Assembly: GCA_049303675.1 (NCBI GenBank)
Contig: JBAQNJ010000001.1
Location: 600,711 to 664,710 of the forward strand
Direction: 5' to 3'
Length of the DNA stretch: 64,000 nucleotides
From: Microgenomates group bacterium
GTDB taxonomy: Bacteria; Patescibacteriota; Microgenomatia; UBA12405
Position numbers and translations under genes: made by a program
The notes under the pieces: generated by a model
The model's input: the letters and a program-made list of their open reading frames with translations, nothing else
The model's database searches: none
What the model was told of the DNA's origin: nothing
Shown here: in pieces, positions 7,864 to 43,785 of the stretch
Layout of the letters: each line of letters starts with the position of its first letter
How positions within the stretch are numbered: position 1 is the first letter of the stretch

Positions 7864-7897
7864 TCTCCCTTGTTAAAGGGAGATTTAGAGGGATTGG
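7864..7897 (+). repeat. palindromic repeat copy B (TCTCCCTTGTTAAAGGGAGATTTAGAGGGATTGG)
   Basis: Ends 1 nt before the era stop codon (7898-7900, minus strand). Perfect 8-bp stem TCTCCCTT/AAGGGAGA with GTTA loop. Confidence 0.85.
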
Positions 7898-8800
7898 TTA
7901 GTTATTATACGTTCTTTCCATCCAGTGTTTATCGATCTCGACCGTCAAATCCAAAAACACTTTTCGACTCGACATTAGCTCTAGTTCTTTACGCGCATTG
8001 AATCCAATTTCTCTAATTTTTTTACCATTCTTACCAATAATCATTTTCTTGTATCTATCAGCATTAGTAAAAATTATCGCTTTAATATATATTAGTTTTC
8101 CCTTATCTTTCACCTCTTTCACCTCAACATTGATAGTATAGGGCAGCTCTTCTCTCAAAAACAAATATGCCTTTTCTCGAATAATTTCTGACACATACTC
8201 TTTTGACCCCATACCCATCAACGGCCCACCCTTATTATCTGCCATCACTCCCAGCTCATCCTTGATCTCTTTTTCCGTTACTTCCGGCAAAAAATCAAAT
8301 ATAATATTCAGTAGTCCTTTGATATTTTTCTCTTTAATGGCGCTAGTAGTAATTACTTTATCAAACTCATCTTCCAAATAATTATATTCTGCCAAGTGAT
8401 CCTTGCTCCCAATGGCCTTGTCCATCTTGTTATAGACCAATATTTTTTTAGAGGGCATTTTTCGTACTAGCCCAATTACCTTATTTTCTTCCTCAGTTTT
8501 TTCCCGAGAGATATCCACCATGCAGACCACCACATCTTTTCTGGCTGTTGACTTGGGGGCTTCCAAATTAATATTTTTAGACATCAAATCTTCCACCTTG
8601 CCAATGATCCCTGGGGTATCAGTAAACACTATTACCCCTCGTTCATCTCGGAATACCACCTGACTACTCTTACGGGTGGTTTGGGGTAGGGGAGAGGTGA
8701 TGGCCACTTTTTGGTTCATCAGAGCATTGAGCATCGTTGATTTACCGGTATTAGGCCTACCTACTATCGCCACCCTTCCAAATTTCAACATATTTATCAT
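7898..8800 (-). CDS. era: GTPase Era
   Basis: G1 motif VAIVGRPNTGKSTMLNAL, DTPG, NKMD; C-terminal KH domain. Confidence 0.9.
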   Translation of the reverse strand: MINMLKFGRVAIVGRPNTGKSTMLNALMNQKVAITSPLPQTTRKSSQVVFRDERGVIVFTDTPGIIGKVEDLMSKNINLEAPKSTARKDVVVCMVDISREKTEEENKVIGLVRKMPSKKILVYNKMDKAIGSKDHLAEYNYLEDEFDKVITTSAIKEKNIKGLLNIIFDFLPEVTEKEIKDELGVMADNKGGPLMGMGSKEYVSEIIREKAYLFLREELPYTINVEVKEVKDKGKLIYIKAIIFTNADRYKKMIIGKNGKKIREIGFNARKELELMSSRKVFLDLTVEIDKHWMERTYNN

Positions 8801-8840
8801 TAGTGGTATTTTAACCTATATCTCAGATAAATGTGCACTA

Positions 8841-8888
8841 CCTCCCCTGTTAAGGGGAGGTGTGAGCAAAGCGAGCGGAGGGATTGAA
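8841..8888 (+). repeat. palindromic repeat copy C, long form (CCTCCCCTGTTAAGGGGAGG-tgtgagcaaagcgagcgg-AGGGATTGAA)
   Basis: Same stem-loop and GGGATTG box as the other copies, with an ~18-nt insert; lies in the era/lon divergent intergenic region. Confidence 0.8.
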
Positions 8889-8940
8889 AGGCGTGATTTA
8901 TCTCTTGACACTTAGCACCACCCTTGTTAGACTGCTAAAT

Positions 8941-11304
8941 ATGTCAGAAAATACCATCGTCACTCTCGAACCAATTAAGAAGGTTTTACCCCTTATTCCT
9001 CTTCGTAACTTAGTTCTCTTTCCCTCAGTCGAGACCTCCCTCTTTTTTGGTCGCAAAGAATCCATGAATTCCCTTTTGCATGCCTACGATAACACCAATA
9101 AATTAGTCATAATTACTACTCAGCACAATTCCAAGACGGAGAAACCAGAGCTCAAAGATCTCTATTCTGTCGGTGTTTTGGCTCGGATCGAACACATTCT
9201 CCACACCGATGGTAGCCTCCATGCCATAGTTAAGGGTATTTCTCGGGTCAATATTGTTAATCTCATTCAAACTGAGCCCCATTTTATGGTCGAGTTTGTC
9301 GATCTGCCCATTATTACCGAGTCACTCACCGATATCCAGCAATCCGCCGAAGTCCTTCTCGATCAGCTCAAAAAGGCCTTTGCCATGGGTCGTCAATTTG
9401 ACCTCCCCGCCATGATGCAGCTCAGTACTGGCGTCAGTAGTTCCGATCTGGCCGATCAGGTTTGTTTTTCCGTCAACACCAAATTAGTCGAGAAACAGCA
9501 ATTATTGGAGACCCTCATGGTCAGCCAGCGTCTCCGCGCTGCCGCTGAATATTTAGTCAAAGAAATGAAGGTGGCTGAATTGGAGCGATCGATTGAGGAC
9601 AAAACCCAAGAAAAATTTAATAGCAATATGAAGCGCAATGTTCTCGAGGAGCGTAAACATCAAATCGAAAAGGAACTGAAAAAGTTAGGCCACGAGACTG
9701 GCAGCGACACCGATGAGTTAGGTAAAAAAATAAAAAAGAGTCCCATGCCCAAGGATATTAAGAAGAAGGTTTTAAAAGAGCTTCATCGTCTCGAAGAAAT
9801 GGGTAGTATGTCTCCCGAGTCTAGTTATATTCGCACCTATCTTGAGGTAGTTGTTGAATTACCTTGGGGTAAATATGCTAAATCAAAATTAAGTATCGAG
9901 CAAGCCGAAAAAATACTCGACCACGATCACTATGGTTTGCGCGAGGTCAAGGAACGTATTTTAGAATATCTCGCTGTTCTCAAAATCAAAGAATCTCAAA
10001 AATCTCCCGACCAAACAGCCTCTGCCAATATCCTTTGTTTTATTGGACCTCCGGGCGTGGGTAAGACATCTCTCGGTAAATCTATTGCTCGAGCCATGGG
10101 CCGCGAGTTTATTCGTGCCTCTTTAGGCGGAATCCGTGATGAGGCCGAGATTCGTGGTCATCGCCGGACTTATGTTGGCGCTATGCCTGGTCGTATCGTC
10201 AAAGGGCTAAAAGAAGCCAAATCTATGAATCCTGTTTTTATGCTCGATGAAGTCGACAAAATTGGGGCCGATTATCGCGGCGACCCATCCGCTGCTCTTT
10301 TGGAAACTCTCGATCCCGAGCAGAACCGAGAGTTCACTGACCATTATCTCGACTTCCCCCTCGACCTTTCCAAAGTATTTTTTATCCTTACTGGCAATGA
10401 TCTTGGCTCTATTCCCTATGCTCTGCGAGACAGATTGGAGATAATTAATTTTAGTGGCTATACTCTCGAAGAAAAATTCAATATTGCCAAAAAATATCTT
10501 ACCAAAAAACAATTGGCCGCCAATGGTCTGCGCGATTCCCAAATACCGCCAATTACTGATGATACCTATCGTTACCTGATCGACAAATATACCCGTGAGG
10601 CTGGGGTGCGCAATTTAGAGCGGACTATTTCCACCTTATACCGCAAAGTTGTCCGTCACATTGTCTCCAAAAAAACTCTGAAAATAGATATCAACAGTCC
10701 CAAAGTCATCCAAAAATATTTAGGTCCAGAAAAATTTTCCTCCCAACTCAAGGGCAAAAAAGACGAGGTTGGCGTCAGCACTGGATTGGCATGGACTAGT
10801 GTTGGTGGCGATATCCTTTTTATCGAAGTCAATGTCATGCCCGGCAAAGGTAGTCTAATTTTGACCGGTAAATTGGGCAGTGTCATGAAAGAATCATGTC
10901 AGGCCGCCGTTTCTTTTGTTCGTTCCATGTCCACCGAATGGGGGATCAAGCAAGACTTTCACAAAATCGACATTCACATTCATGTTCCCGAGGGAGCCAC
11001 TCCCAAGGATGGCCCTAGCGCAGGTGGCGCCATTACCACTGCTCTAGTTTCGGCTCTCAAGAATATCCCTATGCCTCGCGATATTGCCATGACTGGCGAA
11101 ATAACCCTCCGTGGTAATATTCTCGAGATTGGCGGGTTGAAGGAGAAAACTATTGCCGCTGCCCGGGCTGGTATCAAAACCATCTTTTTCCCACATGACA
11201 ATGTCAAGTCATTAGTCGAAGTTCCAGCCGAGGTCAAAAAAGCTATCAAATTTATCCCTGTCGCTCATTATTCCCAGATTTATCGTCAAATATTCAAAAA
11301 GTAG
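8941..11304 (+). CDS. lon: ATP-dependent Lon protease
   Basis: Lon N-domain, AAA+ Walker A GPPGVGKTSLGKS, and a C-terminal S16 protease with the catalytic DGPSAG. ORF begins at 8884, but the first 19 codons overlap repeat copy C, so the start is set at MSENTIV (8941). Confidence 0.9.
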   Translation: MSENTIVTLEPIKKVLPLIPLRNLVLFPSVETSLFFGRKESMNSLLHAYDNTNKLVIITTQHNSKTEKPELKDLYSVGVLARIEHILHTDGSLHAIVKGISRVNIVNLIQTEPHFMVEFVDLPIITESLTDIQQSAEVLLDQLKKAFAMGRQFDLPAMMQLSTGVSSSDLADQVCFSVNTKLVEKQQLLETLMVSQRLRAAAEYLVKEMKVAELERSIEDKTQEKFNSNMKRNVLEERKHQIEKELKKLGHETGSDTDELGKKIKKSPMPKDIKKKVLKELHRLEEMGSMSPESSYIRTYLEVVVELPWGKYAKSKLSIEQAEKILDHDHYGLREVKERILEYLAVLKIKESQKSPDQTASANILCFIGPPGVGKTSLGKSIARAMGREFIRASLGGIRDEAEIRGHRRTYVGAMPGRIVKGLKEAKSMNPVFMLDEVDKIGADYRGDPSAALLETLDPEQNREFTDHYLDFPLDLSKVFFILTGNDLGSIPYALRDRLEIINFSGYTLEEKFNIAKKYLTKKQLAANGLRDSQIPPITDDTYRYLIDKYTREAGVRNLERTISTLYRKVVRHIVSKKTLKIDINSPKVIQKYLGPEKFSSQLKGKKDEVGVSTGLAWTSVGGDILFIEVNVMPGKGSLILTGKLGSVMKESCQAAVSFVRSMSTEWGIKQDFHKIDIHIHVPEGATPKDGPSAGGAITTALVSALKNIPMPRDIAMTGEITLRGNILEIGGLKEKTIAAARAGIKTIFFPHDNVKSLVEVPAEVKKAIKFIPVAHYSQIYRQIFKK

Positions 11305-12325
11305 TCGGCTCCAATTTGTCTCCCACACTAATTCTAGCTGCCGTCATATAAAACAGCAGCCAACTATTAATGTTAATCACATTTAGTCCGCTGATTATTA
11401 GAAAGGCAATCAAAAATATTTGACTGTCGCGATCGCCAGCCCTAAATAAGCAATAAAATAAGCCGACCCAGATAAATAAGCCCACAATTCCCGTATTTAC
11501 GGCTATATCAAGTAGTATATTGTGGGCCCTGTCTACTCGAATATTTTTTAGATCAAAATCCTTATCGGTCAAGATTGATTTAAAACCAGTCTCATACCCC
11601 TCCGGTCCCCATCCCCATAGGGGTTTATTCCAAATTATTTCAGTAGACTTACTCCAGATAGTTAGCCGGTTATCAAAATGAGAGATACTTTTCTTAGGGA
11701 AAATAATTATCAAAATTATCCCTGCCACCAGTCCCAACCCCAGTAACTTCCGGTTTATATTCATCAGCCCTGATATTAGCCACGCTAGTCCCGCCGATCG
11801 ACTATTAGTCAGCCAACAAATTATTCCCGCTCCGAGTTTATCGATTGACCAGACAGAGTTTATCGATAATAGCGCCAAATATGCCGCGATAAAATTTGGA
11901 TTTCCCATCAGTGGCCACTTTAGGGCTAGGAGGCTTAGTCCACCTCCCAGCCACCAAATCATTTTATTTTTAGCATCCCTAGTTAGTTTCATTTGCTTAC
12001 TCAAAAAATACCATTCGATCATTGACCCAATGGTTATTAGTCCAGAATATCGATAGATATCTCCCACCAATCCGTTATACCGGAGTCCATTCACTAGCCA
12101 GCTAATTAAATTAACTAGTCCCATCGCTAAAATTAAATAATCAATTTGGTTCTCCACCCTAAAAAATGTTTTTTTTGTCTTGAGAATATAGGCCACTCCC
12201 CACCCATTTACTCCTGCCAAAAACACCAAAAATTTAGGAAATTCATAGTCGATATTTCCCCGAAAATATACCAGTGGCAGTACCCCTAGCCAAAATATCC
12301 AGTATGTCCTTGTAAATTTATCCAT
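11294..12325 (-). CDS. O-antigen ligase (Wzy_C) family membrane protein
   Basis: Multi-TM protein carrying the Wzy_C-type motif RVDRAHNILLDIAVNTGIVGLFIW. Confidence 0.55.
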   Translation of the reverse strand: MDKFTRTYWIFWLGVLPLVYFRGNIDYEFPKFLVFLAGVNGWGVAYILKTKKTFFRVENQIDYLILAMGLVNLISWLVNGLRYNGLVGDIYRYSGLITIGSMIEWYFLSKQMKLTRDAKNKMIWWLGGGLSLLALKWPLMGNPNFIAAYLALLSINSVWSIDKLGAGIICWLTNSRSAGLAWLISGLMNINRKLLGLGLVAGIILIIIFPKKSISHFDNRLTIWSKSTEIIWNKPLWGWGPEGYETGFKSILTDKDFDLKNIRVDRAHNILLDIAVNTGIVGLFIWVGLFYCLFRAGDRDSQIFLIAFLIISGLNVININSWLLFYMTAARISVGDKLEPTTF

Positions 12326-12344
12326 TGTTAATTATAACTATATT

Positions 12345-13148: not shown

Positions 13149-13385
13149 TTTTTTATCTAGACTCGCTAGATAATTTTCACTCGGTGGTGAAGCCAATGTG
13201 TTATCAGGTGTGGCATCCTGTTTGGCTCTGGCCTCAAACTCTTCCCGTCGACCCCCGTTTCTAATAGCCAATAGTACCTGAGGATTGGCAGTTTTTATAT
13301 CCAGACTGCCACTAGCCAACAATCTGGCAGCTTCATTTAGCATTTTTTGCATACCATCTTCTAGCCACATCACCGAATATACCAC
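13143..13385 (-). CDS. hypothetical small protein (uncertain)
   Basis: 80-aa ORF immediately downstream of the argS stop; no recognisable domain. Confidence 0.25.
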   Translation of the reverse strand: MVYSVMWLEDGMQKMLNEAARLLASGSLDIKTANPQVLLAIRNGGRREEFEARAKQDATPDNTLASPPSENYLASLDKKL

Positions 13386-13394
13386 ACTTTCCCC

Positions 13395-15779
13395 CTACAT
13401 CTTCTCCAGCGTTTCAATACCTAGCAAGTTCAATCCAGTTTTGAGTATTCTAGCGCTCACTGCGGTCAAAAATAGTCGCCTTTCCTCTTCCGGTTCACCA
13501 ATTATCCGGCACTTGGCATAAAACTCATTATATTTTCTGGCGAGGTTGAGGAGATATTCAGCGATAACTGCTGGCGAGTATCGCTCTGCCGCCTCCACAA
13601 TTTTTTCATTAAAAATATAAAAATATCGCAGCAGCGGCATTTCATTCTCATCAAACCCCTCAAGTTTTGTTTTTTTATTTTTTACTTTTGTCTTTTGTAG
13701 CACGCTGGTACAGCGTGCAAAAGTATATTGTAAATATGGTCCACTATTTCCATTCAAATCAATTGATTTTTTTATATCAAAGATACTATTTTGAGTCGGG
13801 TCGCTTCTTAAAACTGAAAATTTAACCGCTCCTATGGTTACTTTTTCCGCCACCTCATCTTTGTTTTCGACACCTTCCTTAATCAATTTTCTTACCTCAT
13901 CTTTAGTTTCATCCAAAATACTATCAACTGTAACAATGTCTCCAGTTCTTGAAGACATTTTTTTACCTACCAAATTTACCATTCCCATTGGCAGATGATA
14001 TTGTCGATCTTTATACCACGGATCCAATAACTCCAGAGCCTGAATCACCACCCTAAAGTAGCCGGATTGTTCATTTCCGACTACATGAATATTTTTATCA
14101 TATGCAAATTCCTTTCTCTGGGCCACTGCCAGCCCCATTTCTTTACCTTCATATGTCACCGTTCCGGCTCCGGTAATAAACACCCGCTTGTGTAATCCAT
14201 ACTTGCTACCGTCAAATACAATAGCTCCCTCATCTCCTTTTTCAAAAACTTTTCCCAAATTATCTAATACAATTTGTTTCCCTATTTCCGATATCTGACT
14301 CTCAAAAAATAAACTGTCAAACTTGGTGTAAAATCTGGCGTAAAATTCTTCATAATAATTCAGGCTCCACTGTCTAGTTGTTTGGTACAAACCCCAAATT
14401 GATTTATCTTTTTGATATAGCTTTTGATTAATCTCATCAATTTCAGCCTTATTTTCATTTTCATAATCAGTGCATCCTAATGCGTAAGCTTTACCCAAAA
14501 AATGGGCCTTTTCTGCGTTAGTTTTTTTCTGCCAGCTTTCCAAGTCTTCGTTATTCGCCTTAAATAATTTCATCACTCCCCAAAGCGCTTTAGCCACATG
14601 CGGTCCAATATCACCCTGGTAATTAGCCCTAAATACTTTCGCTCCGGTAGTTTCAAATATCCTTCCCAAAGACTCCCCTGTGATCAATGTTCTCATGTGC
14701 CCCACATGCAATTCTTTGTGGGTATTCGGGTGGGCAAATTCCACCATCACTTTCTTTTTAGCGTTTAACTGACTTAGCTCATTCTTAAATTTTTCATTTA
14801 AAATATTTTCTGCCTCTTCCACCAACACATTATTTTTTATCCAAATATTAGAAAATCCAGCCACCTTATCTACTTTTTCAACAATATCAAGATTTAACAA
14901 ATCAAAATTTCCCCTAACGGCATAGTCCCCAAACTTTTCCACTGTTGGGTGATTAACAGCAGCTTTTGTGGCTTCAAAAATTTGTTTTGCTAGAAAATAA
15001 TATTTTTTTTCTTGTTTAATCTGTACTGGTGTCTCTTGTGGTTGCCACTCCTCAATATTTTTAGTTACAAAATCAATTTCTGCCACCGAATGATCTCTGT
15101 CCAGCCACAAAATTTCACTTTTACCTCCAAACAATTCTTTAACTTTTGATACAAATTCCTCAGCTGAATTTTTAATCAAGTCATTATTAACACCCTTAAA
15201 TCCATCCATCACGAAATATCCGTTTTTAGAGCCGGAAGTTAATTTCGTTCTTTCACACTGTCTCCAATTCAAAGCCCTCGTCGACAAATCTTTATCATCA
15301 CCCCACACCAATTCTCCCTTGACCGCTTCTTTACTTTTTTTGCCACCAATTGGAAACCACTTTTCCCCACCATTGGCGAAAAACAATCTAAAGTTCCCAT
15401 ATACCGTATCCAAATCCTCACCACCAAATGGTGTGGACTTGGCAATACTAAAACCATTGTACAGATTTACCATTGGATTAATATTTGGTATTTGTCCGCC
15501 TTCCAAAACTCTGCGGGACAAGGCTACATGAGCCGGCATAAATACTTTGGGATCAGATCCAAAGTCACTAAAACACTTTTCGTATGCAGTGACATTTTCA
15601 AGCTCATTAAAATTCTGTAAAGTAAATTTATTCCTCAATGCCACTTCCGAATTTCTCAAAAATTCCAGAGCATCTGCGACTGATTTATGATTATCAAATC
15701 CCAGAATAATAGGTATCGCCACCACCAAATCCGGAAATTTTTCAAATACTTTTTTATCAACTATAAATTTCATACACAT
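13395..15779 (-). CDS. argS: arginyl-tRNA synthetase with an N-terminal B3/4-like domain fusion
   Basis: Class I core with the HIGH-region PNTHKELHVGHMRTL, an ArgRS N-terminal add-on domain, and a DALR-type C-terminus ending LLGIETLEKM. The extra ~210 N-terminal residues resemble the B3/4 tRNA-binding/editing fold (NINPMVNLYNGFSIAKSTPFGGEDLDTVYGNFRLFFANGGE). Confidence 0.85.
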   Translation of the reverse strand: MCMKFIVDKKVFEKFPDLVVAIPIILGFDNHKSVADALEFLRNSEVALRNKFTLQNFNELENVTAYEKCFSDFGSDPKVFMPAHVALSRRVLEGGQIPNINPMVNLYNGFSIAKSTPFGGEDLDTVYGNFRLFFANGGEKWFPIGGKKSKEAVKGELVWGDDKDLSTRALNWRQCERTKLTSGSKNGYFVMDGFKGVNNDLIKNSAEEFVSKVKELFGGKSEILWLDRDHSVAEIDFVTKNIEEWQPQETPVQIKQEKKYYFLAKQIFEATKAAVNHPTVEKFGDYAVRGNFDLLNLDIVEKVDKVAGFSNIWIKNNVLVEEAENILNEKFKNELSQLNAKKKVMVEFAHPNTHKELHVGHMRTLITGESLGRIFETTGAKVFRANYQGDIGPHVAKALWGVMKLFKANNEDLESWQKKTNAEKAHFLGKAYALGCTDYENENKAEIDEINQKLYQKDKSIWGLYQTTRQWSLNYYEEFYARFYTKFDSLFFESQISEIGKQIVLDNLGKVFEKGDEGAIVFDGSKYGLHKRVFITGAGTVTYEGKEMGLAVAQRKEFAYDKNIHVVGNEQSGYFRVVIQALELLDPWYKDRQYHLPMGMVNLVGKKMSSRTGDIVTVDSILDETKDEVRKLIKEGVENKDEVAEKVTIGAVKFSVLRSDPTQNSIFDIKKSIDLNGNSGPYLQYTFARCTSVLQKTKVKNKKTKLEGFDENEMPLLRYFYIFNEKIVEAAERYSPAVIAEYLLNLARKYNEFYAKCRIIGEPEEERRLFLTAVSARILKTGLNLLGIETLEKM

Positions 15780-15786
15780 ATTATAT

Positions 15787-17491: not shown

Positions 17492-17504
17492 ATTGTCTAA
17501 AAAA

Positions 17505-19040: not shown

Positions 19041-19046
19041 TTTCCT

Positions 19047-19373: not shown

Positions 19374-19376
19374 ACT

Positions 19377-27505: not shown

Positions 27506-27859
27506 CTAGCTTATATTCCCATAGTATCTTATATCTCTACCGAGTATACACACCGCGTCAATCCGGTATTTTTCAAAATTCCGTCTCATTTGCGAATTCT
27601 TGAGCAGATACAGCTCTGCCACCCGTCTCACCTGAGCAATTTTCCTTTTATTAATCATCTCTTCCGGTAGCCCCATTCTGTCATCAGATTTATATTTAAC
27701 TTCGACAAACACTAGGGTATCTCTATCACTCATAATCAAATCAATTTCTCCTATATCTGTATCATAATTACTCTCTATAAAACTAAATCCCTGATCAATT
27801 AAATATCTTTTAGCCGTATCTTCCCCCACTTTCCCCTTATTATAATTTTCTTTTTTCAT
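27506..27859 (-). CDS. yraN: YraN-family (UPF0102) endonuclease
   Basis: [46 protein letters not shown] matches the YraN restriction-endonuclease-like fold motif. Confidence 0.8.
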
Positions 27860-27875: not shown

Positions 27876-27909
27876 TCTCCCCTGTTAAAGGTAGATTTAG
27901 AGGGATTGG
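27876..27909 (+). repeat. palindromic repeat copy D (TCTCCCCTGTTAAAGGTAGATTTAGAGGGATTGG), degenerate stem
   Basis: Between the comM/yifB stop (27913) and the yraN start (27859). Near-identical to copy B apart from stem mismatches. Confidence 0.75.
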
Positions 27910-27912: not shown

Positions 27913-29445
27913 TTATTCTCTTACTCTAAATTGTAATGCCTCAGCAATATGGCTATCAGTAATATCAATCGAATTACCCAAATCGGCGATAGTTCTAGCC
28001 ACCTTTATCAATCTAAAATAAGTTCTGGCTGACAAATTAAATTTATTGACCGCCTGTTTTAGCAGCAGATTCGCTTCTTTGGTCAACTTGGCAAATTCTT
28101 TCAAGTGAATATTTTTCATATCAGAATTACAATAGACTCCCTCCACTTTTTCAAATCTTTTTCTCTGAATATTTCTGGCCTCTTTAACTCTATTTTTTAT
28201 CACCTCCGATTTCTCCGCCCCATTATTATCCATTTTATCCAGCATCAATTTATTGATATCCACCGCCGGCACATTCAAATGTAAATCAATCCGGTCCATT
28301 ATTGGCCCCGACAACTTTTTTTGATAATTTACTATTTGATGGACGGTACACTTGCACTCTTTTTTGGGATCACCGAGGAATCCACACGGGCAGGGATTAG
28401 CCGCCGCGATTAGCATGAATTTAGCGGGGAAATTAACCGACCCTGCTGCTCGGCTAATAGTTACTTGGCCATCTTCCAGCGGTTGTCTCAGTGCCTCTAG
28501 GGTATTTCTGCCAAATTCCGGAAACTCATCGAGAAACAGTACCCCCCGATGAGCCATTGATACTTCTCCAGGGTGGGGGATAGAACCTCCACCAATTAGT
28601 CCTACGAGTGAAGTTGTGTGATGCGGGCTCCTAAATGGCCGTTGTCTAATTAGCGACCCGCCCGCCGGTATATTGCCAGTAATCGAAAATATTTTAGTTA
28701 CCTCGAGGCTCTCTCGTTCACTCAGATCGGGCAAAATCCCCGCTGCCGCTCGTGACAGCATTGTCTTACCTGACCCAGGCGGCCCCATCATAAAAATATT
28801 ATGACCCCCCGAAGCAGCTATTTCCAAAGCTCTTTTAGCCATTTCTTGCCCCAGTACTTCTCCAAAATCAAATTCAGGATGGATATCACCGAGTATCTCT
28901 TCTGGGATCACGGTCTCCAATGGCACTATTTCCTTACACCCACTCAAATGCAACATAAGTGACTTTAGACTGTCTACCGGGAATACTTTTACCCCTTCGA
29001 CCACACTCGCTTCATTGGCACAGAGTCTGGGCACAAAAATATTTTTTACTCCCTGCTCTTTGGCCAGTATGGCCAACAAAAACACTCCTCTGGTGTGGCG
29101 TAGAGTACCATCCAGTGATAATTCACCATAAAAATAGGCTTTTTCTTTACCCAGACTCAATTCACCCATAGATGACAATATTCCCACCGCAATCGGCAAA
29201 TCATACCCCGATCCCTCCTTGGGTAAATCAGCTGGGGCCAAATTGACCGTTATCTTCATCGGTCGAAAATCAATATCGGTATTGATAATGGCCGTTTTGA
29301 CTCTCTCCTTCAATTCTTCGCCACTTTTACTGGCAATCCCCACAATTCCAAAAGAAGGGAATCCCTTATCCGCTACATTCACCTCGACCTCAATCTCCAC
29401 CGCTTTTAGTCCATAATTTGTCACCGACGCCACCTTGGTCAGCAT
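27913..29445 (-). CDS. comM: Mg-chelatase-like AAA+ ATPase YifB/ComM
   Basis: N-terminal Lon-like S5 fold domain ([11 protein letters not shown] ... [13 protein letters not shown]), AAA+ Walker [11 protein letters not shown], and a C-terminal Mg-chelatase subunit ChlI domain. Confidence 0.85.
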
Positions 29446-32283: not shown

Positions 32284-32302
32284 ACATACCCGAAGACAAA
32301 CC
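32284..32302 (-). promoter_or_regulatory. shared upstream motif ACATACCCGAAGACAAACC (reads GGTTTGTCTTCGGGTATGT on the gene strand), copy 1
   Basis: Exact 19-mer repeated at 32663-32681, in both cases ~20-40 nt upstream of a small minus-strand gene; overlaps a putative -35 (TTGTCT). Confidence 0.45.
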
Positions 32303-32324
32303 AAAAATTGTTCAATAGACAAAT

Positions 32325-32627: not shown

Positions 32628-32662
32628 CTTTGATACTGGTTATATACTACCATAAATGGCTA

Positions 32663-32681
32663 ACATACCCGAAGACAAACC
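32663..32681 (-). promoter_or_regulatory. shared upstream motif ACATACCCGAAGACAAACC, copy 2
   Basis: Identical 19-mer upstream of the 32325..32627 gene. Confidence 0.45.
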
Positions 32682-32735
32682 GAAGTTTTTCCTATATAAT
32701 AAACAATTGCATTAATTTTAAAAAAATATGCTTTA

Positions 32736-32770
32736 CCCTCCTTGTCAAAGGAGGGTAGGGTGGATTGAAA
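32736..32770 (+). repeat. palindromic repeat copy E (CCCTCCTTGTCAAAGGAGGGTAGGGTGGATTGAAA), abutting the uvrA start codon
   Basis: 8-bp stem CCCTCCTT/AAGGAGGG with GTCA loop, then GGATTGAAA directly followed by the ATG at 32771. Confidence 0.75.
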
Positions 32771-35434
32771 ATGATTGACAAAATAACCGTCAAAGGTGCT
32801 CGGGAAAACAATCTCCAAAATGTCTCTTTTGAGATACCCAAAAACAAACTGGTTGTCTTTACTGGAGTCTCCGGCTCCGGTAAATCTAGCATGGCCTTTG
32901 ATACATTATTTGCCGAGGGTCAACGTCGTTATGTTGAGTCACTCTCTTCCTATGCCCGTCAATTTTTAGGTAATATGCATCGCCCCGAGGTTGATCAAAT
33001 TGAGGGCCTATCTCCCAGTATTGCTATCAATCAAAAAGCTATCTCTCACAATCCTCGTTCCACTGTTGGCACTGTCACCGAAATCTACGATTACCTCCGT
33101 CTCCTCTTTGCCCGTATTGGTCATCCTCATTGTCCCAATTGTGGTCGCGAAGTTATCCCCCAGACCAGTCGTCAAATCGTCAACCAGATTATCGAGGCCG
33201 GCCCCCGTCGTTTTTTCCTCCTCGCCCCCCTAGTCAAAAACAAGTCAGGTGATTTACACGGACTCTTGGACAATTTACGCAAGCAGGGCTACAAACGTAT
33301 CCGTGCCGACAGCAAAATAATAGATTTATATTCCGATTTTGGTCTGACCAAGACCAACAAACACACCATCGAAGCCGTCACTGATCGGGTGGCCATCCAC
33401 CCCGAAAATATCAAAAACTCCAAAGATTTGATTGCCAGATTGGTTGATAGTGTCGAAGCCACCCTCAAGCTCAGTAATGGTTTGTGTATTGTGGCTACCG
33501 TGGCTGATTCTGGCTTTGATTTTCCCGAAAACCCCGTCGAATTAGTCGATACCTTGTATTCTGAAAATTTTGCCTGCCCTAATTGCAACCTATCCATTCC
33601 CGAGATCGAGCCCCGTCTATTTTCCTTCAATTCTCCTGAGGGTGCCTGCCCCGAATGTAAAGGTTTGGGTGCCAAATTTCAAATTGATAGATCAAAATAC
33701 CCCGAATGGAAGGCCAGATATTTAGAGCAAAAATATTATTCATCCCAATCAGAAACTATTCGCGACGAACTGGAAAAGTTTATGATCAAAACTAGTTGTC
33801 ATATTTGCCATGGCTCTCGCCTCAACCCCGACTCTCTATCAGTCACTATTGAGGGTCAAAATATTTTTCAAATATGTCAGCTGCCCATTATCGACATGGC
33901 CGCTTGGGCCGACAACCTGATCAATATATTAATTTCTCCTAAGGAAAAAGAAATCTTAGAATCAATTCATCGAGAAATCCATACTCGCCTCGAATTTTTA
34001 TTAGCAGTTGGGCTAGATTATTTGTCACTTGAACGCGAAGCAGGGACATTATCCTCGGGTGAGTCCCAGCGTATCCGTCTGGCATCCCAAATTGGTACCG
34101 GTTTAACTGGGGTCCTTTACATCCTTGATGAACCGACGATTGGTCTTCATTCCCGTGATAACGACCGACTAATTGGTACTCTCAAAAAACTTCGTGACAC
34201 TGGCAATTCAGTAGTTGTTGTGGAACACGACGAAGAAGTTATCCGCTGTGCCGACCATGTGGTTGATTTTGGCCTATATGCAGGCAAAAATGGTGGACAA
34301 ATAGTGGCACAGGGTACACTCGAAGATATTTTAAAAAGTAAGACTAGCCTTACCGGCCAATACATGTCCGGCAAAAAAACAATAACTAGTCAAATAGTTA
34401 AAGTAAATTCCCCCCTTGTTAAAGGGGGGTCAGGAGGGATTGTTATCACTGGAGCCAAGCAATGGAATCTCAAAAATGTCACCGTCACTTTTCCGCTCAA
34501 TAAATTAATTAGTGTCACCGGCGTTTCCGGTTCAGGCAAATCAACTCTAGTTCACGACACTCTCTATGGAGGTGTTCGCAAAGCTACTCTGGGAGCATAT
34601 TACGGCACCATTGGTGAGTATGACAAAATCACTGGCGCTGAATATATTAAAGACGTATTGTTAGTCGACCAGAGTCCCATTGGTCGCACCCCCCGCAGCA
34701 ATCCGGCTACCTATACCAAAGTTTTCGATGACATCCGCGCTCTCTTGGCTCGCACTCCCGAGGCTCAGATCCGCGGTTACAATTCTTCTCGTTTTTCTTT
34801 TAATACTAAGGGCGGTCGTTGCGAAGCCTGTCAAGGACAGGGTCAAATCAAAATTGAGATGCAGTTTTTAGCCGATATTTACGTTACTTGTGATGAGTGT
34901 CATGGTACGAGGTTTAAAGAAGAAACACTTGAAGTCTATTACAAAGAAAAAAATATTGCCGATATTCTCAAGTTAACTTTTGATGAAGCTCTAGATTTTT
35001 TCAAAAATATCAACTCCCTACGGAGAAAAATTACCACTATTCAGGAGGCTGGTCTGGGCTATCTTCAATTAGGTCAACCCAGCAACACCTTGTCAGGAGG
35101 GGAGTCACAACGACTCAAAATTAGTCGAGAGTTAGTCAAAAAACTAGATGGCAAAATATTATATATTTTAGATGAGCCCACTACCGGACTCCATTTTTAT
35201 GATATCGACAAGTTAATCAAAGTCCTACGAAAATTAGTGGATATGGGTAACACAGTGGTAGTTATCGAACACAATTTAGATGTCATCAAAAATTCTGATT
35301 GGATTATTGATATGGGTCCCGAGGGAGGTCATCGTGGCGGTGAAGTTTTAATAGAGGGTACGGTTGAAGACGTGATTGCCTGTCCCAAATCCTACACCGG
35401 CCAGTATCTCCAAAAACATCTGTCAACAAAATAG
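32771..35434 (+). CDS. uvrA: excinuclease ABC subunit A
   Basis: Two ABC modules (GVSGSGKSS and GVSGSGKST Walker A; LSGGESQR signature twice) and zinc-finger cysteine pairs. Contains repeat copy F in-frame (34409-34442). Confidence 0.9.
34409..34442 (+). repeat. palindromic repeat copy F (TCCCCCCTTGTTAAAGGGGGGTCAGGAGGGATTG), in-frame within uvrA
   Basis: Encodes [11 protein letters not shown] in the inter-module linker of UvrA, in the same codon phase as copy A in rlmN. Confidence 0.85.
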
Positions 35435-35446
35435 TCAAACTGGAGT

Positions 35447-35785: not shown

Positions 35786-35813
35786 ACTGATACTCTATGA
35801 AAAATTGTGAATA

Positions 35814-36149: not shown

Positions 36150-36172
36150 AACGGTATAATACCATACCTATT

Positions 36173-39201: not shown

Positions 39202-39253
39202 AGATAATGTATTATAGTTTAATAATTTGAAATTCGTAATTATTAATTCGTAA

Positions 39254-39967
39254 TTATTTCACTCTTTGCCCAAACACCAACAACCTTTTCCAATCAGTCC
39301 CAATCGGCCAGCATGTTTGGAGGATCAGCACCTCCCTTTCCGGATCAGAATATTTTAAATATTCAATTTCAGAAGCGTTAACAATTTTTTGCATATAAAC
39401 TTGATAGGTATAAATTTCACCTTCTTTGTCTACAAAAATAACATCATTATTTTTTAGCTCACCCAACAAATAGAATAGTGAGTTTTGTCTCACCATGCTT
39501 ATTCCTTGTTCAGTTGAGTGAGCAAAAATAAATGTCGATTTACCCAGTCCCGCCCCGACATCACTCGATCCCTTAGCCTGGGCGACTACACTATCTTTTA
39601 AAATCCGTGAATATTCCTTTTGGTCAAACGGCGACACGTTTTTGACAATATTGGCAAAAGCGCCAATTCTAGGAATGGTAATTGAGTATTCAGTCGAACC
39701 GATCTCAGTCGCCACGTTTGGAGTGGGCACTAATCGGGGATCCGCCGTCACCGCTACTGGACTATTTGCACTTTTCCAATAGCCTAAAACTGCTCCAGCT
39801 AATGGAAAATATAAGTAAACAGTATATATCACCGAAAGTAATAAAATTATGTTTCCTAGATGAAAAATAAACTTACTAATTTGATTTGGGTTGTTAAAAA
39901 TAATTCCCCTACCTTTTCGTATTTTTACCATTCTTCTCTTTGGCACTGGTCTAAAAAAATCCCACAT
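39254..39967 (-). CDS. sortase family transpeptidase
   Basis: N-terminal TM anchor and catalytic TLxTC-type motif LILQTCWP, with an upstream His (FAHSTEQG). Confidence 0.7.
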   Translation of the reverse strand: MWDFFRPVPKRRMVKIRKGRGIIFNNPNQISKFIFHLGNIILLLSVIYTVYLYFPLAGAVLGYWKSANSPVAVTADPRLVPTPNVATEIGSTEYSITIPRIGAFANIVKNVSPFDQKEYSRILKDSVVAQAKGSSDVGAGLGKSTFIFAHSTEQGISMVRQNSLFYLLGELKNNDVIFVDKEGEIYTYQVYMQKIVNASEIEYLKYSDPEREVLILQTCWPIGTDWKRLLVFGQRVK

Positions 39968-40040
39968 AATCTAATTGTAGCAGAATAAAATTCTGGCTAT
40001 AAATACGTAAGTATTCAATACATACCTCAAAAATATACAG

Positions 40041-40069
40041 TTGACATATGTATAGATGTGCCCTAATAT
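40041..40069 (+). promoter_or_regulatory. near-consensus sigma70-type promoter TTGACA-N17-TAATAT
   Basis: TTGACAtatgtatagatgtgcccTAATAT, ~245 nt upstream of the greA ATG, oriented toward greA. Confidence 0.45.
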
Positions 40070-40260
40070 AACTACCTGTGGCCCAAAAAATTACGCTTAC
40101 AGAAACCATAATCACCCGTTTACGGGATAGTGTTTCTGCGTACTTTAAAGCCATTATTTGCCTCAATAAATGAGACTGGTATTTTGTCAATACCACCTCA
40201 AATTAATATTAGGGGCTTTTTTTAGTACTTTTAGGTAAAATTTGGATTTTAAGACATAAT

Positions 40261-40305
40261 TTTGCCTAAAATTACAATCCCGATTTATCGGGAAGTTACA
40301 TTTTT
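40261..40305 (+). terminator. repeat/hairpin TTTGCCT...AATCCCGATTTATCGGGAAG followed by a T-run (attenuator-like) in the greA leader
   Basis: Palindrome CCCGATttaTCGGG (40279-40292) followed by gttacaTTTTTATT. Same motif family as at 45110-45160. Confidence 0.4.
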
Positions 40306-40313
40306 ATTAAATA

Positions 40314-40772
40314 ATGAGTAAAACTCTACTAACCCAAGAAGGGTTCCAAAAATTATCTGATGAACTGTTAGTTCTCAAAGCCAAGAGTGAACATCTCATT
40401 ACTCAAATCGAAGAGAGCGCCCAGCCGGACGAGTCCGGTGAAGATGGTCTGGCCACTCAGCTCAAAGAAGAGCTGGAAGTAGTCAATGAAAAAATTGACA
40501 ATATCGAGGATGCTCTTACCAACTCCGAGATAATTTCTGGCAGAATGTCCAAAACCCTGATTCAGGTTGGTTCAAAAGTAAAAATAAAATTAACTGGTAA
40601 TACCACCAAACTGTTTCATATCGTCAGCCACATCGAGGCGGATCCCCTTCAGCAAAAAATATCCGACCAGTCTCCACTCGGGCAGGCGCTGATGGGTAAA
40701 AAGATCAATGACACGGTTGAGTTTATGGCACCAGTAGGCAAGATCACCTACAAAATCGTCGCCATCAGCTAA
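40314..40772 (+). CDS. greA: transcription elongation factor GreA
   Basis: N-terminal coiled-coil (LTQEGFQKLSDELLVLK) and C-terminal FKBP-like domain (IISGRMSKTLIQVGSKVKIK). Confidence 0.85.
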   Translation: MSKTLLTQEGFQKLSDELLVLKAKSEHLITQIEESAQPDESGEDGLATQLKEELEVVNEKIDNIEDALTNSEIISGRMSKTLIQVGSKVKIKLTGNTTKLFHIVSHIEADPLQQKISDQSPLGQALMGKKINDTVEFMAPVGKITYKIVAIS

Positions 40773-40790
40773 CATAGTATAAAATAAGCT

Positions 40791-42716
40791 ATGTCAACCA
40801 TCGACCAACTGCGAAAAATTCGTTTGGAAAAAATAGCCAAGCTCAAAGAACTGGGAATTAATTCTTATCCTCCCCATTCCCAAAAAGACGCTTCCAATTT
40901 TGCCATCGTCAATACCTTTGAAAAATTTCAAGGCCAGACTCTTCATCTCTGTGGACGAATAATGTCCTTTCGCAAGCAGGGTGGCATTACTTTCGCCCAT
41001 ATTCAGGACGAATCTGCCAAAATACAAGTATTCATCCGCAAACAAACTCTCCAACCTACCAATGCTCAGAAGCAAATATTAGGATATGAGGATATTAGGT
41101 TATTAGACATCGGTGATTTTATTGAAGTAACTGGAGTTATCGACAAAACCTCCACTGGTGAAGTTTCGATTTTAGCTGATACTATTAAACTACTGACAAA
41201 ATCTATCCGTCCTTTACCGGAAAAGTGGTCAGGTATCAAAGATCAGGAGACCATATTTCGCCGCCGCTATTTGGATCTGATTATGAATGACGAGTCAAAG
41301 AAGTTGTTTATCCGAAAAGCCAAATTTTGGCAGCTAAATCGGCAGTTTCTCGCCGACAAGGGTTTTATCGAGGTCGAGACGCCCATTATGGAGTTAGTTA
41401 CTGGTGGTGCCGACGCCAAGCCCTTTATCACCCACCACAATGCTCTCGATCAGGATTTTTATCTACGTATCTCTAGCGAGCTTTATCAAAAAAGATTAAT
41501 CGGTGGTGGTTTTGAAAAAATCTACACCCTCGGTCCAAATTTTCGTAACGAAGGCATCGACGATGAACACTTGCAGGAATATTACCAATGCGAGTGGTAT
41601 TGGGCCTACGCCGATTATCGCCAAAATATGGAACTGGTTGAAGAGTTGTACAAATATATAGCCCAAAATTTATATGGTAAATATGTTTTTACCCGCGGCG
41701 AACATACATTCGATTTAAATGTAAACTGGCCCAGAATTAGTTATGGAGATCTCATCAAAAATCGTTTTCAGGTGGACATTCTTCTCGATTCAGAAGACAA
41801 AATTCTCAAAATATTAAAATCCCAAAAAATCGATACCAGTGGTCTCACCAATCGTGCCAGAATTGTCGACAATTTATGGAAAATAGTTAGACGTGAAATT
41901 GCCGGACCTATATTCATTATTGACGAACCAAAGTTTAGCTCACCTCTAGCCAAGTCACGAGAAGACAATCCTGATCTTACCGAGAGATTTCACGTCATTA
42001 TTGCTGGATCCGAATTAGGCAATGGTTATACCGAGCTCAATGACCCAGTTGACCAATTCGAACGTTTTGCCGATCAACAGAAAAACCGCGATTCCGGTGA
42101 CGACGAATCCCAGATGATGGACATTGATTTTGTCGAGATGTTGGAATGGGGCATGCCGCCTACTTCTGGCTGGGGCCACAGCGAGAGACTATTTTGGTTT
42201 TTTGAAAATGTTACTGCCCGCGAGGGGACACTCTTTCCTCAGATGAAATACGAGATAAGTGACGAGACTAGACGCATCTACAATTTACCCAAGCATCACG
42301 TCATTGCGCCTCGTCACGACGAAGCCTTGGCAAAGTCGGAAGCAGCTGGTCTTCAAAATAACAAAGTCGTCATTGGCAAAATCCTCGAATTCAACACTCA
42401 TCCCAATGCTGACAAATTACATGTTTTATTAGTTGATATTGGCAGCGACAAACTGCAAATAGTTTGCGGTGCTCACAATATCAAAGTGGGGGACATCGTC
42501 CCCGTCTCCCTAATAGGAGCCACGGTTTATGGTGATGAAATGGTGCCGTGGACTGTTGGGCCCTCCAAATTGCGAGGAGTCGACTCCAATGGCATGCTCT
42601 GTTCTACTCGCGAGCTCGGCCTCGGCCCCGACCACGACGGCATCTATTTATTATCTGAAGACCTCTCCTCACATCTCGGCGAGCCAGTTAATAAATATTT
42701 TAAAATTAATGGATAG
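40791..42716 (+). CDS. lysS: lysyl-tRNA synthetase (class II) with appended C-terminal tRNA-binding (Myf/Trbp111-like) domain
   Basis: N-terminal OB anticodon-binding domain and class II motifs (FRNEGIDDEHLQEY, GSELGNGYTEL, GWGHSERL). The extra ~130 aa VVIGKILEFNTHPNADKLHVLLVDIGSDKLQIVCGAHNIKVGD ... LRGVDSNGMLCSTRELGL match the tRNA_bind fold. Confidence 0.85.
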   Translation: MSTIDQLRKIRLEKIAKLKELGINSYPPHSQKDASNFAIVNTFEKFQGQTLHLCGRIMSFRKQGGITFAHIQDESAKIQVFIRKQTLQPTNAQKQILGYEDIRLLDIGDFIEVTGVIDKTSTGEVSILADTIKLLTKSIRPLPEKWSGIKDQETIFRRRYLDLIMNDESKKLFIRKAKFWQLNRQFLADKGFIEVETPIMELVTGGADAKPFITHHNALDQDFYLRISSELYQKRLIGGGFEKIYTLGPNFRNEGIDDEHLQEYYQCEWYWAYADYRQNMELVEELYKYIAQNLYGKYVFTRGEHTFDLNVNWPRISYGDLIKNRFQVDILLDSEDKILKILKSQKIDTSGLTNRARIVDNLWKIVRREIAGPIFIIDEPKFSSPLAKSREDNPDLTERFHVIIAGSELGNGYTELNDPVDQFERFADQQKNRDSGDDESQMMDIDFVEMLEWGMPPTSGWGHSERLFWFFENVTAREGTLFPQMKYEISDETRRIYNLPKHHVIAPRHDEALAKSEAAGLQNNKVVIGKILEFNTHPNADKLHVLLVDIGSDKLQIVCGAHNIKVGDIVPVSLIGATVYGDEMVPWTVGPSKLRGVDSNGMLCSTRELGLGPDHDGIYLLSEDLSSHLGEPVNKYFKING

Positions 42717-43140
42717 TTGTGGAATTTTTGAAAAATTCGATTTACAAAATAATTTAGTTAAAGAATATCAATATTGGTATATATTGATTCGTACCAGACA
42801 ATCATATCTTGGCAATTGTGTTGCAATTCTAAAGAGACATGTCTTCCCTATATCTCAACTAACACAGGAAGAAAGCGAAGAATATTCAAACTTAGTTAAA
42901 GAAGTCGAAATTAGTTTAATAAAATCATTTAATTGTGAATTTGTTCAAACCGCAACAATTATGTATATTGATAAACATGTACATACATTTATTTTTCCTC
43001 GATATCAGGGTAATATTGAATTTAACAACAAAACTTGGGTAGACGACAAAATCCCCGATCCCTTGATCAATAAATCTCCTGATTGTACTCCAGCAGATAT
43101 AGTTCTCATTAAAAATAAAATATTAGAAAATTTAAAATAA
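42709..43140 (+). CDS. HIT-like superfamily protein (divergent motif)
   Basis: KHVHTFIFPRY is positioned like the HxHxHxx histidine triad; the start overlaps the lysS stop (ATGGATAG). Weak. Confidence 0.35.
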   Translation: MDSCGIFEKFDLQNNLVKEYQYWYILIRTRQSYLGNCVAILKRHVFPISQLTQEESEEYSNLVKEVEISLIKSFNCEFVQTATIMYIDKHVHTFIFPRYQGNIEFNNKTWVDDKIPDPLINKSPDCTPADIVLIKNKILENLK

Positions 43141-43142
43141 TT

Positions 43143-43730
43143 ATGGATCATCAAAAATTTGCAGATGCAGTCAAATCAAATTTAGAAAATAATATTTACA
43201 ATCACTCGCTCTCTTTGGAAGCCTGCATGCTCGGTCTTTATGACTATTTCAAAGATAATAATTTGTTAGGTCCTACCGAGCCAACACGCGAAGAGTGGGG
43301 GATAGCTGGATTAATTCACGACATTGATTTTGCTGGAGATACCAAAGAATTACATCCTCTCCGCACCCGCGAAGTTTTGGCAAAATATGGCCTCGAAATA
43401 AATGATACTGTCCAACAAATTATTTTATCCCACGACAAACTTCAAAATATTTCTATGGATAGTAAGGCCAAATGGTCAATCTATTGTGCCGACTCGCTCA
43501 CTGGACTAATTACCGCTGTCGCCTTCGTCTACCCCGATCGTAAACTTTCTTCAGTCAAAGTTTCCTCAGTCTTAAAAAGATTTTTGAAGGAACCCAAGTT
43601 TGCCGCCGGCACCCGTCGTGACGAAGTCGCTGAATGTTCAAATCCCACAGGATTAAATATACCCATCGAAAAATTTATTGAAATCTGTCTCACCTCAATG
43701 CAATCTATTGCGGGAAATATTGGATTATAA
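43143..43730 (+). CDS. HD-domain phosphohydrolase
   Basis: HD motif AGLIHDID plus a downstream His/Asp (ILSHDK). Confidence 0.55.
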   Translation: MDHQKFADAVKSNLENNIYNHSLSLEACMLGLYDYFKDNNLLGPTEPTREEWGIAGLIHDIDFAGDTKELHPLRTREVLAKYGLEINDTVQQIILSHDKLQNISMDSKAKWSIYCADSLTGLITAVAFVYPDRKLSSVKVSSVLKRFLKEPKFAAGTRRDEVAECSNPTGLNIPIEKFIEICLTSMQSIAGNIGL

Positions 43731-43740
43731 TTTGGTACTT

Positions 43741-43785
43741 TCTCCCTTGTTAAAGGGAGATACGGCAAAGCCGAGAGGGATTAAA
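43741..43785 (+). repeat. palindromic repeat copy G, long form (TCTCCCTTGTTAAAGGGAGA-tacggcaaagccgag-AGGGATTAAA)
   Basis: Same stem-loop as copy B plus a ~15-nt insert resembling the insert in copy C (gcaaagcNgag). Confidence 0.8.

Follow-up and report, generated by a model that had tools for sequence, protein, structure and literature searches.

In a 64,000-nt stretch of a Microgenomates group bacterium genome (contig JBAQNJ010000001.1, positions 600,711 to 664,710; this whole stretch is called the window below, and positions are given in its coordinates), we identified a short dispersed repeat of 31-45 nt whose three arms change together, and we consider it probable that this repeat is a gain-and-loss-prone DNA element of the class II purine-motif intrastrand-triplex kind, to which the PIT elements, BoxC and TM_ECO belong. 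It is a new sequence family of known architecture, spread over many phyla and with copies lying in frame inside genes. In the proposed structure, one strand would carry in 5' to 3' order a pyrimidine arm L (x1-x6 TT), a GTTA loop, the purine arm R that complements L, a turn (2-5 nt, or in a long form a stretch bearing a small hairpin of its own), a third arm R' mirroring R, and ATT. Once this strand is single-stranded, L and R would pair as a hairpin of 8-9 bp and R' would fold back antiparallel to R in the major groove, giving 8-9 triads in total of the types G·G-C, A·A-T and T·A-T, where the last triads would come from the conserved TT/AA/ATT segment.

Three-way covariation of the arms

Pattern and repeat searches found eight intact or near-intact copies and one relic in the window (Table 1), and an additional copy lies on the + strand of the flanking sequence (L001), 612 nt 5' of the window start. 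The initial annotation had listed seven hairpins, all on the + strand, and these were found again, with the stems as it gave them, at 3412, 7864, 8841, 27876, 32736, 34410 and 43741; it had missed the copy at 1604, the relic at 710-743 and the upstream copy, and the range of 7864-43785 that it gave leaves out its own copy A at 3412. Its description of copy D at 27876 as degenerate holds, since the stem has two mismatches and does not fold. By folding tools that consider Watson-Crick pairs only, 7 of the 9 window copies form a hairpin of 8-11 bp (-8.4 kcal/mol for the copy at 1604), and the third arm is left unpaired in every copy. A generic finder, which looks for a pyrimidine arm, a loop of 3-6 nt, a complementary arm, a loop of 2-45 nt and a third arm, gave 9 matches on the + strand and 0 on the - strand of the window with its flanks (82.5 kb), while 100 dinucleotide shuffles gave a mean of 0.14 matches per strand and a maximum of 2; the match at 15361 is spurious and outside the family, and the degenerate copy at 27876 and the relic went undetected.

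In fact, the third arm mirrors the purine arm, which makes it the parallel complement of the pyrimidine arm, and it follows a simple triplet rule where a C-G pair goes with G and a T-A pair goes with A or T. In the window, AAGAGGGG is accompanied by GGGGAGATT, AAGGGAGA by AGAGGGATT, AGGGGAGG by GGAGGGATT, AAGGAGGG by GGGTGGATT, and AAGGGGGG by GGGGGGATT and once by GGAGGGATT. The fixed GGGATTG box which the initial annotation placed at the 3' end is thus not fixed, as it reads GGGGAGATT, GGGGGGATT, AGAGGGATT, GGAGGGATT or GGGTGGATT and tracks the stem.

Some 280 further copies, drawn from genomes, metagenomes and viral contigs, follow the same rule; here and below, counts from these wider sets are among the matches listed. 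They come from scans of viral contigs (21 loci) and of species-representative genomes (at least 120 loci) with the pattern YCYCYCTTGTTAAAGRGRGR, and from a metagenome scan whose pattern left the arm L free. Among 156 unique genome and viral copies, for which the search pattern fixed neither the complementarity of L and R nor the third arm, all three variable pairs are complementary in 131, which bears out the initial claim that the stem is maintained through compensatory changes and not as a primary sequence. Moreover, the third arm is predicted perfectly by the copy's own L in 109 of 152 copies and by a swapped arm variant in 3 of 152. When the third arm is anchored independently of L, C-G pairs are matched by G in 96, 40 and 112 copies at the three positions, and T-A pairs by A in 19, 66 and 5 and by T in 0, 11 and 2, with few exceptions. 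Among 121 metagenome copies with L unconstrained, 60 have an asymmetric purine arm, and the third arm is its mirror in 54 of them and repeats it in the same order in none (0/60). Even the length covaries, a T-A pair added to the stem going with a T added to the third arm: the base following ATT is T in 55 of 77 copies with a TTT/AAA instead of a TT/AA stem (loop GTT), as against 28 of 155.

At least 8-10 arm variants obey the triplet rule, for example CCCCCC, CCTCCC, TCCCCC, TCTCCC, CCCCTC, TCCCTC, CCCTCC and TCCTCC, and founder effects alone are therefore unlikely. Watson-Crick pairing cannot account for a mirror third arm. A purine-motif triple helix, whose third strand is antiparallel to the purine strand, does account for it, and a mirrored arm with G on C-G and with A or T on T-A is the signature of such a helix. 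Since the arms change among copies and among orthologous sites only in triplets that keep the geometry, the pattern indicates that the three-stranded fold, or something that reads this fold, is maintained. Accordingly, of the earlier proposal of a hairpin or cruciform under structural selection, the structural selection stands, but a simple hairpin does not suffice because the third arm covaries as a mirror.

The long form and its second loop

The two length classes noted initially are confirmed, with copies C and G as long forms carrying the inserts TGTGAGCAAAGCGAGC and TACGGCAAAGCCG. In short forms loop 1 has 3-4 nt and loop 2 has 2-5 nt; long forms are otherwise identical in design and differ by an insert in the turn that joins the purine arm to the third arm. 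The sets together yield 87 distinct inserts, 10-45 nt in length, which fold far better than their shuffles (median z -3.6) with a typical stem of 5 bp. Loop 2 thus acts as a turn which is either 2-5 nt long or a closed hairpin, and because the insert is a closed hairpin the ends of the turn are held together, as required for the third strand to fold back. GAA, GTA or GCA triloops make up about half of the scored apical loops of the inserts. GNA triloops are classic loops of very stable DNA mini-hairpins, and their frequency mildly favours DNA over RNA. The loops of short forms lie within the short-loop definitions of such triplexes (1-6 nt in ITxF; 0-10 nt in Hoyne et al.), whereas in long forms loop 2, with 13-45 nt, exceeds them and is self-closed by its hairpin.

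Copies inside genes and at orthologous sites

Three intact window copies lie in frame in dus, rlmN and uvrA, where the frame reads SPLVK(G/E)G. The uvrA copy at 34410 occupies a variable linker that precedes the second strand of the type I-x-I-x-G-A-x-x-N-L-K-N, and its ATT encodes the conserved Ile with which the I-x-I-T-G-A strand opens. Peptides resembling the element (SPLVKGG, VPLVKEG, PPLSRGG, SPLSKG and others) are found at this linker in many of 120 orthologues, and the nearest orthologue, with 90% identity, has no element there. The DNA of four orthologues was compared at this linker with the window copy, which has CCCCCCTT and GGAGGGATT: one (L146) carries CCCCCCTT with GGGGGGATT, the second (L147) TCCCTCTT/AAGAGGGA/AGGGAGATT, the third (L148) CCTCCCTT/AGGGGAGG/GGAGGGGTT in another reading frame, and in the fourth (L149) no element was found. 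Upstream of uvrA in the same four genomes, no counterpart of the 32736 copy was found.

Other sites behave in a similar way. The rlmN orthologues mostly have a short linker, and subsets of them have short, long or decayed forms of the element or unrelated in-frame repeats. In a dus orthologue (L275 1217-2251, compared with window 1600-1641), TCT TCC CTT GTT AAA, i.e. the left arm and loop, is retained and the next 24 nt (GAGGGGTTAGGGGAGATTGAAAAA) with the purine and third arms are gone, which looks like a slippage deletion between AAA repeats. Where the window has the 27876 copy in the spacer between comM and yraN, the two genes overlap without any element in a relative (L147), and the orthologous Era-Lon spacer examined (L276) has no copy. 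Taken together, such comparisons indicate that gain, loss and erosion of the element take place at a restricted number of sites that tolerate it; copies enter, or survive in, intergenic spacers and, the genomes here being small ones, also in-frame surface linkers of housekeeping proteins.

At the rlmN linker (window 3409-3450), several orthologues (P0133-P0137, P0160, P0202 and P0206) carry other repeat-like in-frame peptides beginning DVIARSSATWQS and RGASSDEAISSGSPRP, and this linker seems to be a general hot spot for the insertion of structured repeats in Microgenomates.

Hosts of the family

The hosts in the genome scan include Oscillospiraceae and other Clostridia, Shapirobacteria, Beckwithbacteria, Dehalococcoidales, Anaerolineaceae, Deltaproteobacteria, Ignavibacteria, and Rickettsiales and Geomonas metagenome-assembled genomes (MAGs). 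A BLAST search of phage and plasmid records with the long form added replicons of Vescimonas fastidiosa, Sphingobium and Sphingomonas and two gut phage records, and all of these copies are unannotated. A literature search for the string CTTGTTAAAGG returned unrelated primer matches only, and the motif is absent from the supplementary tables of the TM_ECO study (PMC4666352).

Several individual cases may be mentioned. One family of viral-labelled contigs (IMG/VR; L009, L019 and L022) carries 3-4 long-form copies, co-oriented and 1.7-1.9 kb apart. Two Rickettsiales MAGs (L038 and L105) have the arms CCCCTCTT/AAGAGGGG/GGGGAGATT with a 35-nt hairpin in loop 2. A tail-to-tail inverted pair of two subtypes is seen on a Sphingobium plasmid (L272 1500-1615) and in Vescimonas (L273 1503-1612); the Sphingobium copies have neither the TT/AA pairs nor the ATT tail. 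Many metagenome copies (e.g. L155, L165, L172, L175 and L182) are four-part palindromes such as AAATCCCCCC-nnn-CCCCCCTTT-GTT-AAAGGGGGG-nnn-GGGGGGATTT, with the triplex-type arrangement on both strands.

Proposed mechanism and its weight

Folding of single-stranded DNA is the best-supported mechanism for the repeat, as suggested by the covariation together with the published biophysics of a sister family. We infer that the fold arises in living cells whenever replication, repair or transcription exposes single-stranded DNA, and that the element may act as a polymerase obstacle, as a recognition structure or as a source of local instability. One may go further and suppose a structure-defined mobile DNA, where an enzyme recognising, or primed by, the folded Y:R·R single-stranded DNA copies the element to new sites in bacteria of different phyla and in their viruses, hot-spot linkers in essential genes among them, the triplex being the selected in vivo state. 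This extension is possible but doubtful; if true, it would give an in vivo function to triplex folding, which was never shown for any intrastrand triplex repeat.

Several points weigh against the triplex reading. Because the copies share ancestry, there were fewer independent events than the counts suggest, and triplex formation by this repeat is deduced from the rules of its sequence. In the four-part palindromes, the third arm has an upstream Watson-Crick partner and a long hairpin would compete with the triplex. For TM_ECO in E. coli, the triplex went undetected in vivo, and neither a promoter or terminator effect nor one on replication was seen (PMC4666352). As for mobility, no target-site duplication or constant flank was seen around the copies, and among the called genes of the 82 kb examined there is no transposase, integrase or Y1 gene.

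The interest of the family lies in its asymmetric and variable arms. The intrastrand triplex repeats of E. coli have been known since the 1990s and a role of the triple helix in cells was never demonstrated; the E. coli copies are near-identical with almost mirror-symmetric arms, which makes comparative evidence impossible there. In the present family, hundreds of copies from many phyla shift three arms together, and such concerted change is the type of evidence behind RNA secondary structures, here for a putative DNA triple helix. Oligonucleotides of 32 nt with natural triple-compensatory variants are concrete test objects. Moreover, in-frame life inside essential genes (uvrA, rlmN and dus) of minimal genomes bears on protein annotation in Patescibacteria and links the family to repeat-driven linker evolution, as with the Rickettsia palindromic elements (RPEs).

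Comparison with known repeats

The closest known systems are the class II intrastrand triplex repeats of E. coli and other Proteobacteria, i.e. PIT elements and BoxC, with TM_ECO as studied by Holder et al. 2015 (PMC4666352; Hoyne & Maher cited therein). The TM_ECO consensus is CCCTCNCCC N3-6 GGGNGAGGG N3 GGGNGAGGG, and its isolated strand forms a stable triplex in vitro by circular dichroism (CD) and nuclear magnetic resonance; it is always intergenic, has no strand bias (13+/10-), is associated with local genomic instability and frequently occurs as inverted pairs of two subtypes, type A and type B (PMC4666352). The present family shares with these repeats the one-strand series of pyrimidine arm, loop, purine arm, short loop and reverse-Hoogsteen arm, the G·G-C triads with A or T opposite A-T pairs, the tens of dispersed copies, a loop 2 that is often TTA, TTT or CCG-like, the tail-to-tail inverted pairs of subtypes in some genomes (here Sphingobium and Vescimonas), and the behaviour of decay and deletion; an associated transposase is absent there and, among the called genes of the 82 kb, here as well. 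It differs from them in its arms, which have 8-9 nt, end in TT(T)/AA(A) instead of following CCCTCNCCC, and are asymmetric so that mirror covariation becomes visible; in the strongly conserved loop 1 (GTTA/GTT) and ATT tail; in the variable hairpin of 13-45 nt that is possible in loop 2; and in its hosts, which are Patescibacteria, Bacillota, Chloroflexota, delta- and alpha-proteobacterial MAGs, Sphingomonads and viral contigs. Unlike TM_ECO, it also occurs in frame inside genes, with 3 intact copies and 1 relic within open reading frames (ORFs), and all 10 of the 10 local copies sit on one strand. With such arms, loops, ORF copies and one-strand bias, membership in the TM_ECO/BoxC sequence family proper was rejected.

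The repeats of Methanomicrobiaceae (PMC8044849) are likewise dispersed and combine a C-rich run with two G-rich runs, in a hairpin with an antiparallel G-rich third strand; they form an antiparallel triplex or a G-quadruplex (G4), and the triplex was seen in vitro by CD and S1 probing (PMC8044849). In these repeats, however, the order of parts is the opposite, with the C-rich arm at the 3' side (class I-like), there are four G-runs capable of G4 as against two interrupted purine arms here, and the copies are intergenic only. RPEs and intragenic miniature inverted-repeat transposable elements (PMC10969869) resemble our family as small structured insertions which lie in frame in unrelated housekeeping genes, keep the ORF intact and add a conserved peptide. 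The RPEs are Watson-Crick palindromes of about 100-150 bp found in Rickettsia only (PMC10969869), whereas the present element has 31-45 nt, a third mirror arm and hosts in multiple phyla; in-frame insertion is common to both, and membership was rejected on size, three-arm design and host range. With the REP/BIME/REPIN repeats (RAYT, IS200/IS605-like Y1), the family has in common short dispersed hairpins, compensatory stems, some inverted pairs and an action as single-stranded DNA, which for our family is the proposed one, but it has no conserved 5' GTAG at the foot of the hairpin, the REPs have no mirror third arm, and no RAYT/Y1 gene was found among the called genes of the 82 kb. An origin as REP/RAYT or another transposon is not supported within these 82 kb, whose called genes include no transposase, integrase or Y1 and whose copies show neither target-site duplication nor constant flank.

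Orientation of the copies

All 10 of the 10 family copies in the window and its upstream flank are on one strand (two-sided p ~0.002), whichever way the genes run: the copies at 7864 and 27876 lie between minus-strand genes and the copy at 8841 between divergent genes. Every 2-kb bin has a negative GC skew on the + strand (-0.04 to -0.34), more strongly so where genes lie on the minus strand; no switch occurs, and the whole window is one skew regime. In Shapirobacteria-like loci, the strand of the element is the C-rich strand. If the G-rich strand is the leading one, following the usual rule, the putative triplex-forming strand would sit on the leading-strand template. Because PIT elements block polymerases in vitro (PMC4666352), one possible reading by analogy is that selection against obstacles on the lagging-strand template causes the bias.

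Beyond the window, such a tendency is not general. Among 118 genome and viral loci, orientation shows no link with local GC skew (52 negative vs 66 positive), and in 68 metagenome loci there is a weak trend (42 vs 26, p=0.07). These counts, with at most a weak trend, do not support a general replication-strand explanation, and the window has no skew switch. The flanking genes in the wide set are co-oriented with the element in 44 cases and opposed in 26, and of the copies within open frames of 200 or more codons, 16 are sense and 15 antisense (metagenome set plus 3 window copies), which contradicts the sense-strand rule for intragenic copies that is true in the window. Inverted pairs are present in several genomes. 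The uniform orientation that was noted initially is thus significant in this window and does not extend beyond it, given the missing link with GC skew.

Alternative explanations

The alternative that survives best, though an unlikely one, is an element of duplex DNA or of protein recognition, where supercoiling drives R, the turn and R' into H-DNA, or the arms are the site of a protein, for example a recombinase or transposase yet to be found; the hairpin with its third strand in single-stranded DNA would then not be the state that matters. Indeed R-loop2-R' alone is a homopurine mirror repeat as H-DNA requires, loop 1 (TTGTTAAA) is kept from phylum to phylum together with the ATT tail, in the manner of a protein site, the patchy presence at orthologous sites suggests mobility, and copies occur on viral contigs and plasmids. 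However, H-DNA needs no L on the same strand, yet L covaries with R and R'; dimeric proteins read inverted and not mirror repeats; the 82 kb around the copies contain no candidate gene; and TT/AA/ATT would be explained as terminal triads, which lengthen with the stem.

An RNA element is less likely still. It would be a transcribed hairpin that controls translation or mRNA stability, with the third arm as a ribosome-binding site or as the third strand of an RNA triple helix. The CCUCC arm does resemble an anti-Shine-Dalgarno sequence and the GGAGG arms a Shine-Dalgarno one; the 32736 copy and a Shapirobacteria copy (L052) each end 4 nt before a start codon, that of uvrA in the former; every intragenic window copy is sense; and there is the modest excess of co-orientation (44 vs 26). 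On the other hand, Watson-Crick RNA pairing leaves the mirror R' unexplained, and RNA is reported not to support purine-motif triplexes (PMC4666352). The copies at 7864 and 27876 are antisense to their neighbours, those in long open frames are divided 16 to 15, start codons lie at varying distances of 4 to about 55 nt, four copies are within ORFs, and the loop-2 hairpins prefer GNA triloops over GNRA tetraloops. Rfam 15 gave a tRNA as the sole match in the window at gathering thresholds, and eight long-form loci gave nothing overlapping the element even at E<=1. RNA as the medium of the structure, which the initial annotation had offered beside DNA, thus becomes less likely in view of the reported absence of such triplexes in RNA, the occurrence in both gene orientations and the lack of Rfam matches.

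That no structure is selected at all, with a few low-complexity G/C-rich founders amplified by descent and a window orientation due to chance, is very improbable: near-identical copies do exist within lineages (e.g. the Clostridia gggaccgc... group), homopolymer arms such as CCCCCC are blind to mirror versus direct order, and orientation is unlinked to GC skew in the wide set, but each of the at least 8-10 arm variants comes with its matching R and R', the same-order third arm is missing from all 60 asymmetric copies, the 9 motif matches stand against 0.14 per strand in shuffles, and orthologous uvrA sites differ in three arms simultaneously.

Some narrower readings were tried and rejected as well. 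A Shine-Dalgarno or start-site role of the supposed GGGATTG box disagrees with a lon start 55 nt away, with the varying distances and with the covariation of the box with the stem. A switch between alternative hairpins, L pairing with R or with R', disagrees with R' being the mirror of R (same order 0/60). A G-quadruplex has two interrupted purine runs only and leaves the A/T covariation unexplained, and for an intrinsic terminator the purine arm is followed by loop 2 and a purine third arm, with TTT in 3 copies only and as a 3-nt turn.

Window copies and their surroundings

The window has a G+C content of about 40% and contains dus, rlmN, obg, era, lon, comM, uvrBAC, serS, secA and other housekeeping genes; its UvrA is 73-90% identical to proteins of Candidatus Shapirobacteria. 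The relic at 710-743 belongs with the window positions 43749-43782, to which it is 85% identical, in the repeat family D17.

Table 1. Copies of the three-armed repeat, and the direct-repeat family D1, in the window
Feature	Position	Strand	Setting	Parts
Long-form relic	710..743	+	within RRM-protein gene (276-848)	left arm gone; GTCA AAGGGAGA AGCGGCGAAGCCG AGAGTGATT; loop 2 insert AGCGGCGAAGCCG
Short form	1604..1635	+	in frame within dus (ORF 1105-2169); peptide SPLVKEGLGEI	L CCCCTCTT (1604-1611); loop GTTA; R AAGAGGGG (1616-1623); loop 2 TTA; third arm GGGGAGATT (1627-1635)
Short form (A)	3412..3445	+	in frame within rlmN (ORF 3009-4004); peptide SPLVKGGIKGGL	L CCCCCCTT; GTTA; R AAGGGGGG; loop 2 ATTAA; third arm GGGGGGATT
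Short form (B)	7864..7895	+	intergenic, flanked by minus-strand era (7898-8800) and ORF 7216-7665	TCTCCCTT GTTA AAGGGAGA TTT AGAGGGATT
Long form (C)	8841..8885	+	spacer of divergent era/lon	CCTCCCCT GTTA AGGGGAGG; loop 2 TGTGAGCAAAGCGAGC (16 nt); third arm GGAGGGATT
Short form, degenerate (D)	27876..27907	+	between comM (27913-29445, -) and yraN/UPF0102 (27506-27859, -)	TCTCCCCT GTTA AAGGTAGA TTT AGAGGGATT; two stem mismatches, no fold
Short form (E)	32736..32766	+	ends 4 nt 5' of uvrA ATG (32771)	CCCTCCTT GTCA AAGGAGGG TA GGGTGGATT; third-arm T opposite a T-A pair
Short form (F)	34410..34441	+	in frame within uvrA	arms CCCCCCTT/AAGGGGGG; third arm GGAGGGATT
Long form (G)	43741..43782	+	intergenic, HD-domain gene (43143-43730) / serS (43835-45100)	TCTCCCTT GTTA AAGGGAGA; loop 2 TACGGCAAAGCCG, a mini-hairpin CGGC-AAA-GCCG; third arm AGAGGGATT
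Family D1	215-257, 4996-5038, 5521-5563, 6182-6224, 13653-13695, 48034-48076, 56637-56679			T-rich stretches

The copies are unevenly placed. From 44000 to 64000 and through the following 9.6 kb (L144 11789-21437; secA and a glycosyltransferase cluster) there are zero family copies, while the preceding 45 kb hold 10, and such a gap has p ~0.01 under uniform placement.

Two other kinds of repeat were seen along the way. The motif ACCCGAAGACAAAC[CG][AG]AA occurs twice in the uvrB-uvrA spacer (32288-32305 and 32667-32684; 0.19 expected) and again 40-60 nt upstream of uvrA in two related genomes (L148 and L149); it is a possible operator or promoter of this gene. The direct-repeat family D1 consists of T-rich, roughly phased stretches similar to TTTTTACTTTTG, which may be A/T-tract spacers or terminator regions.

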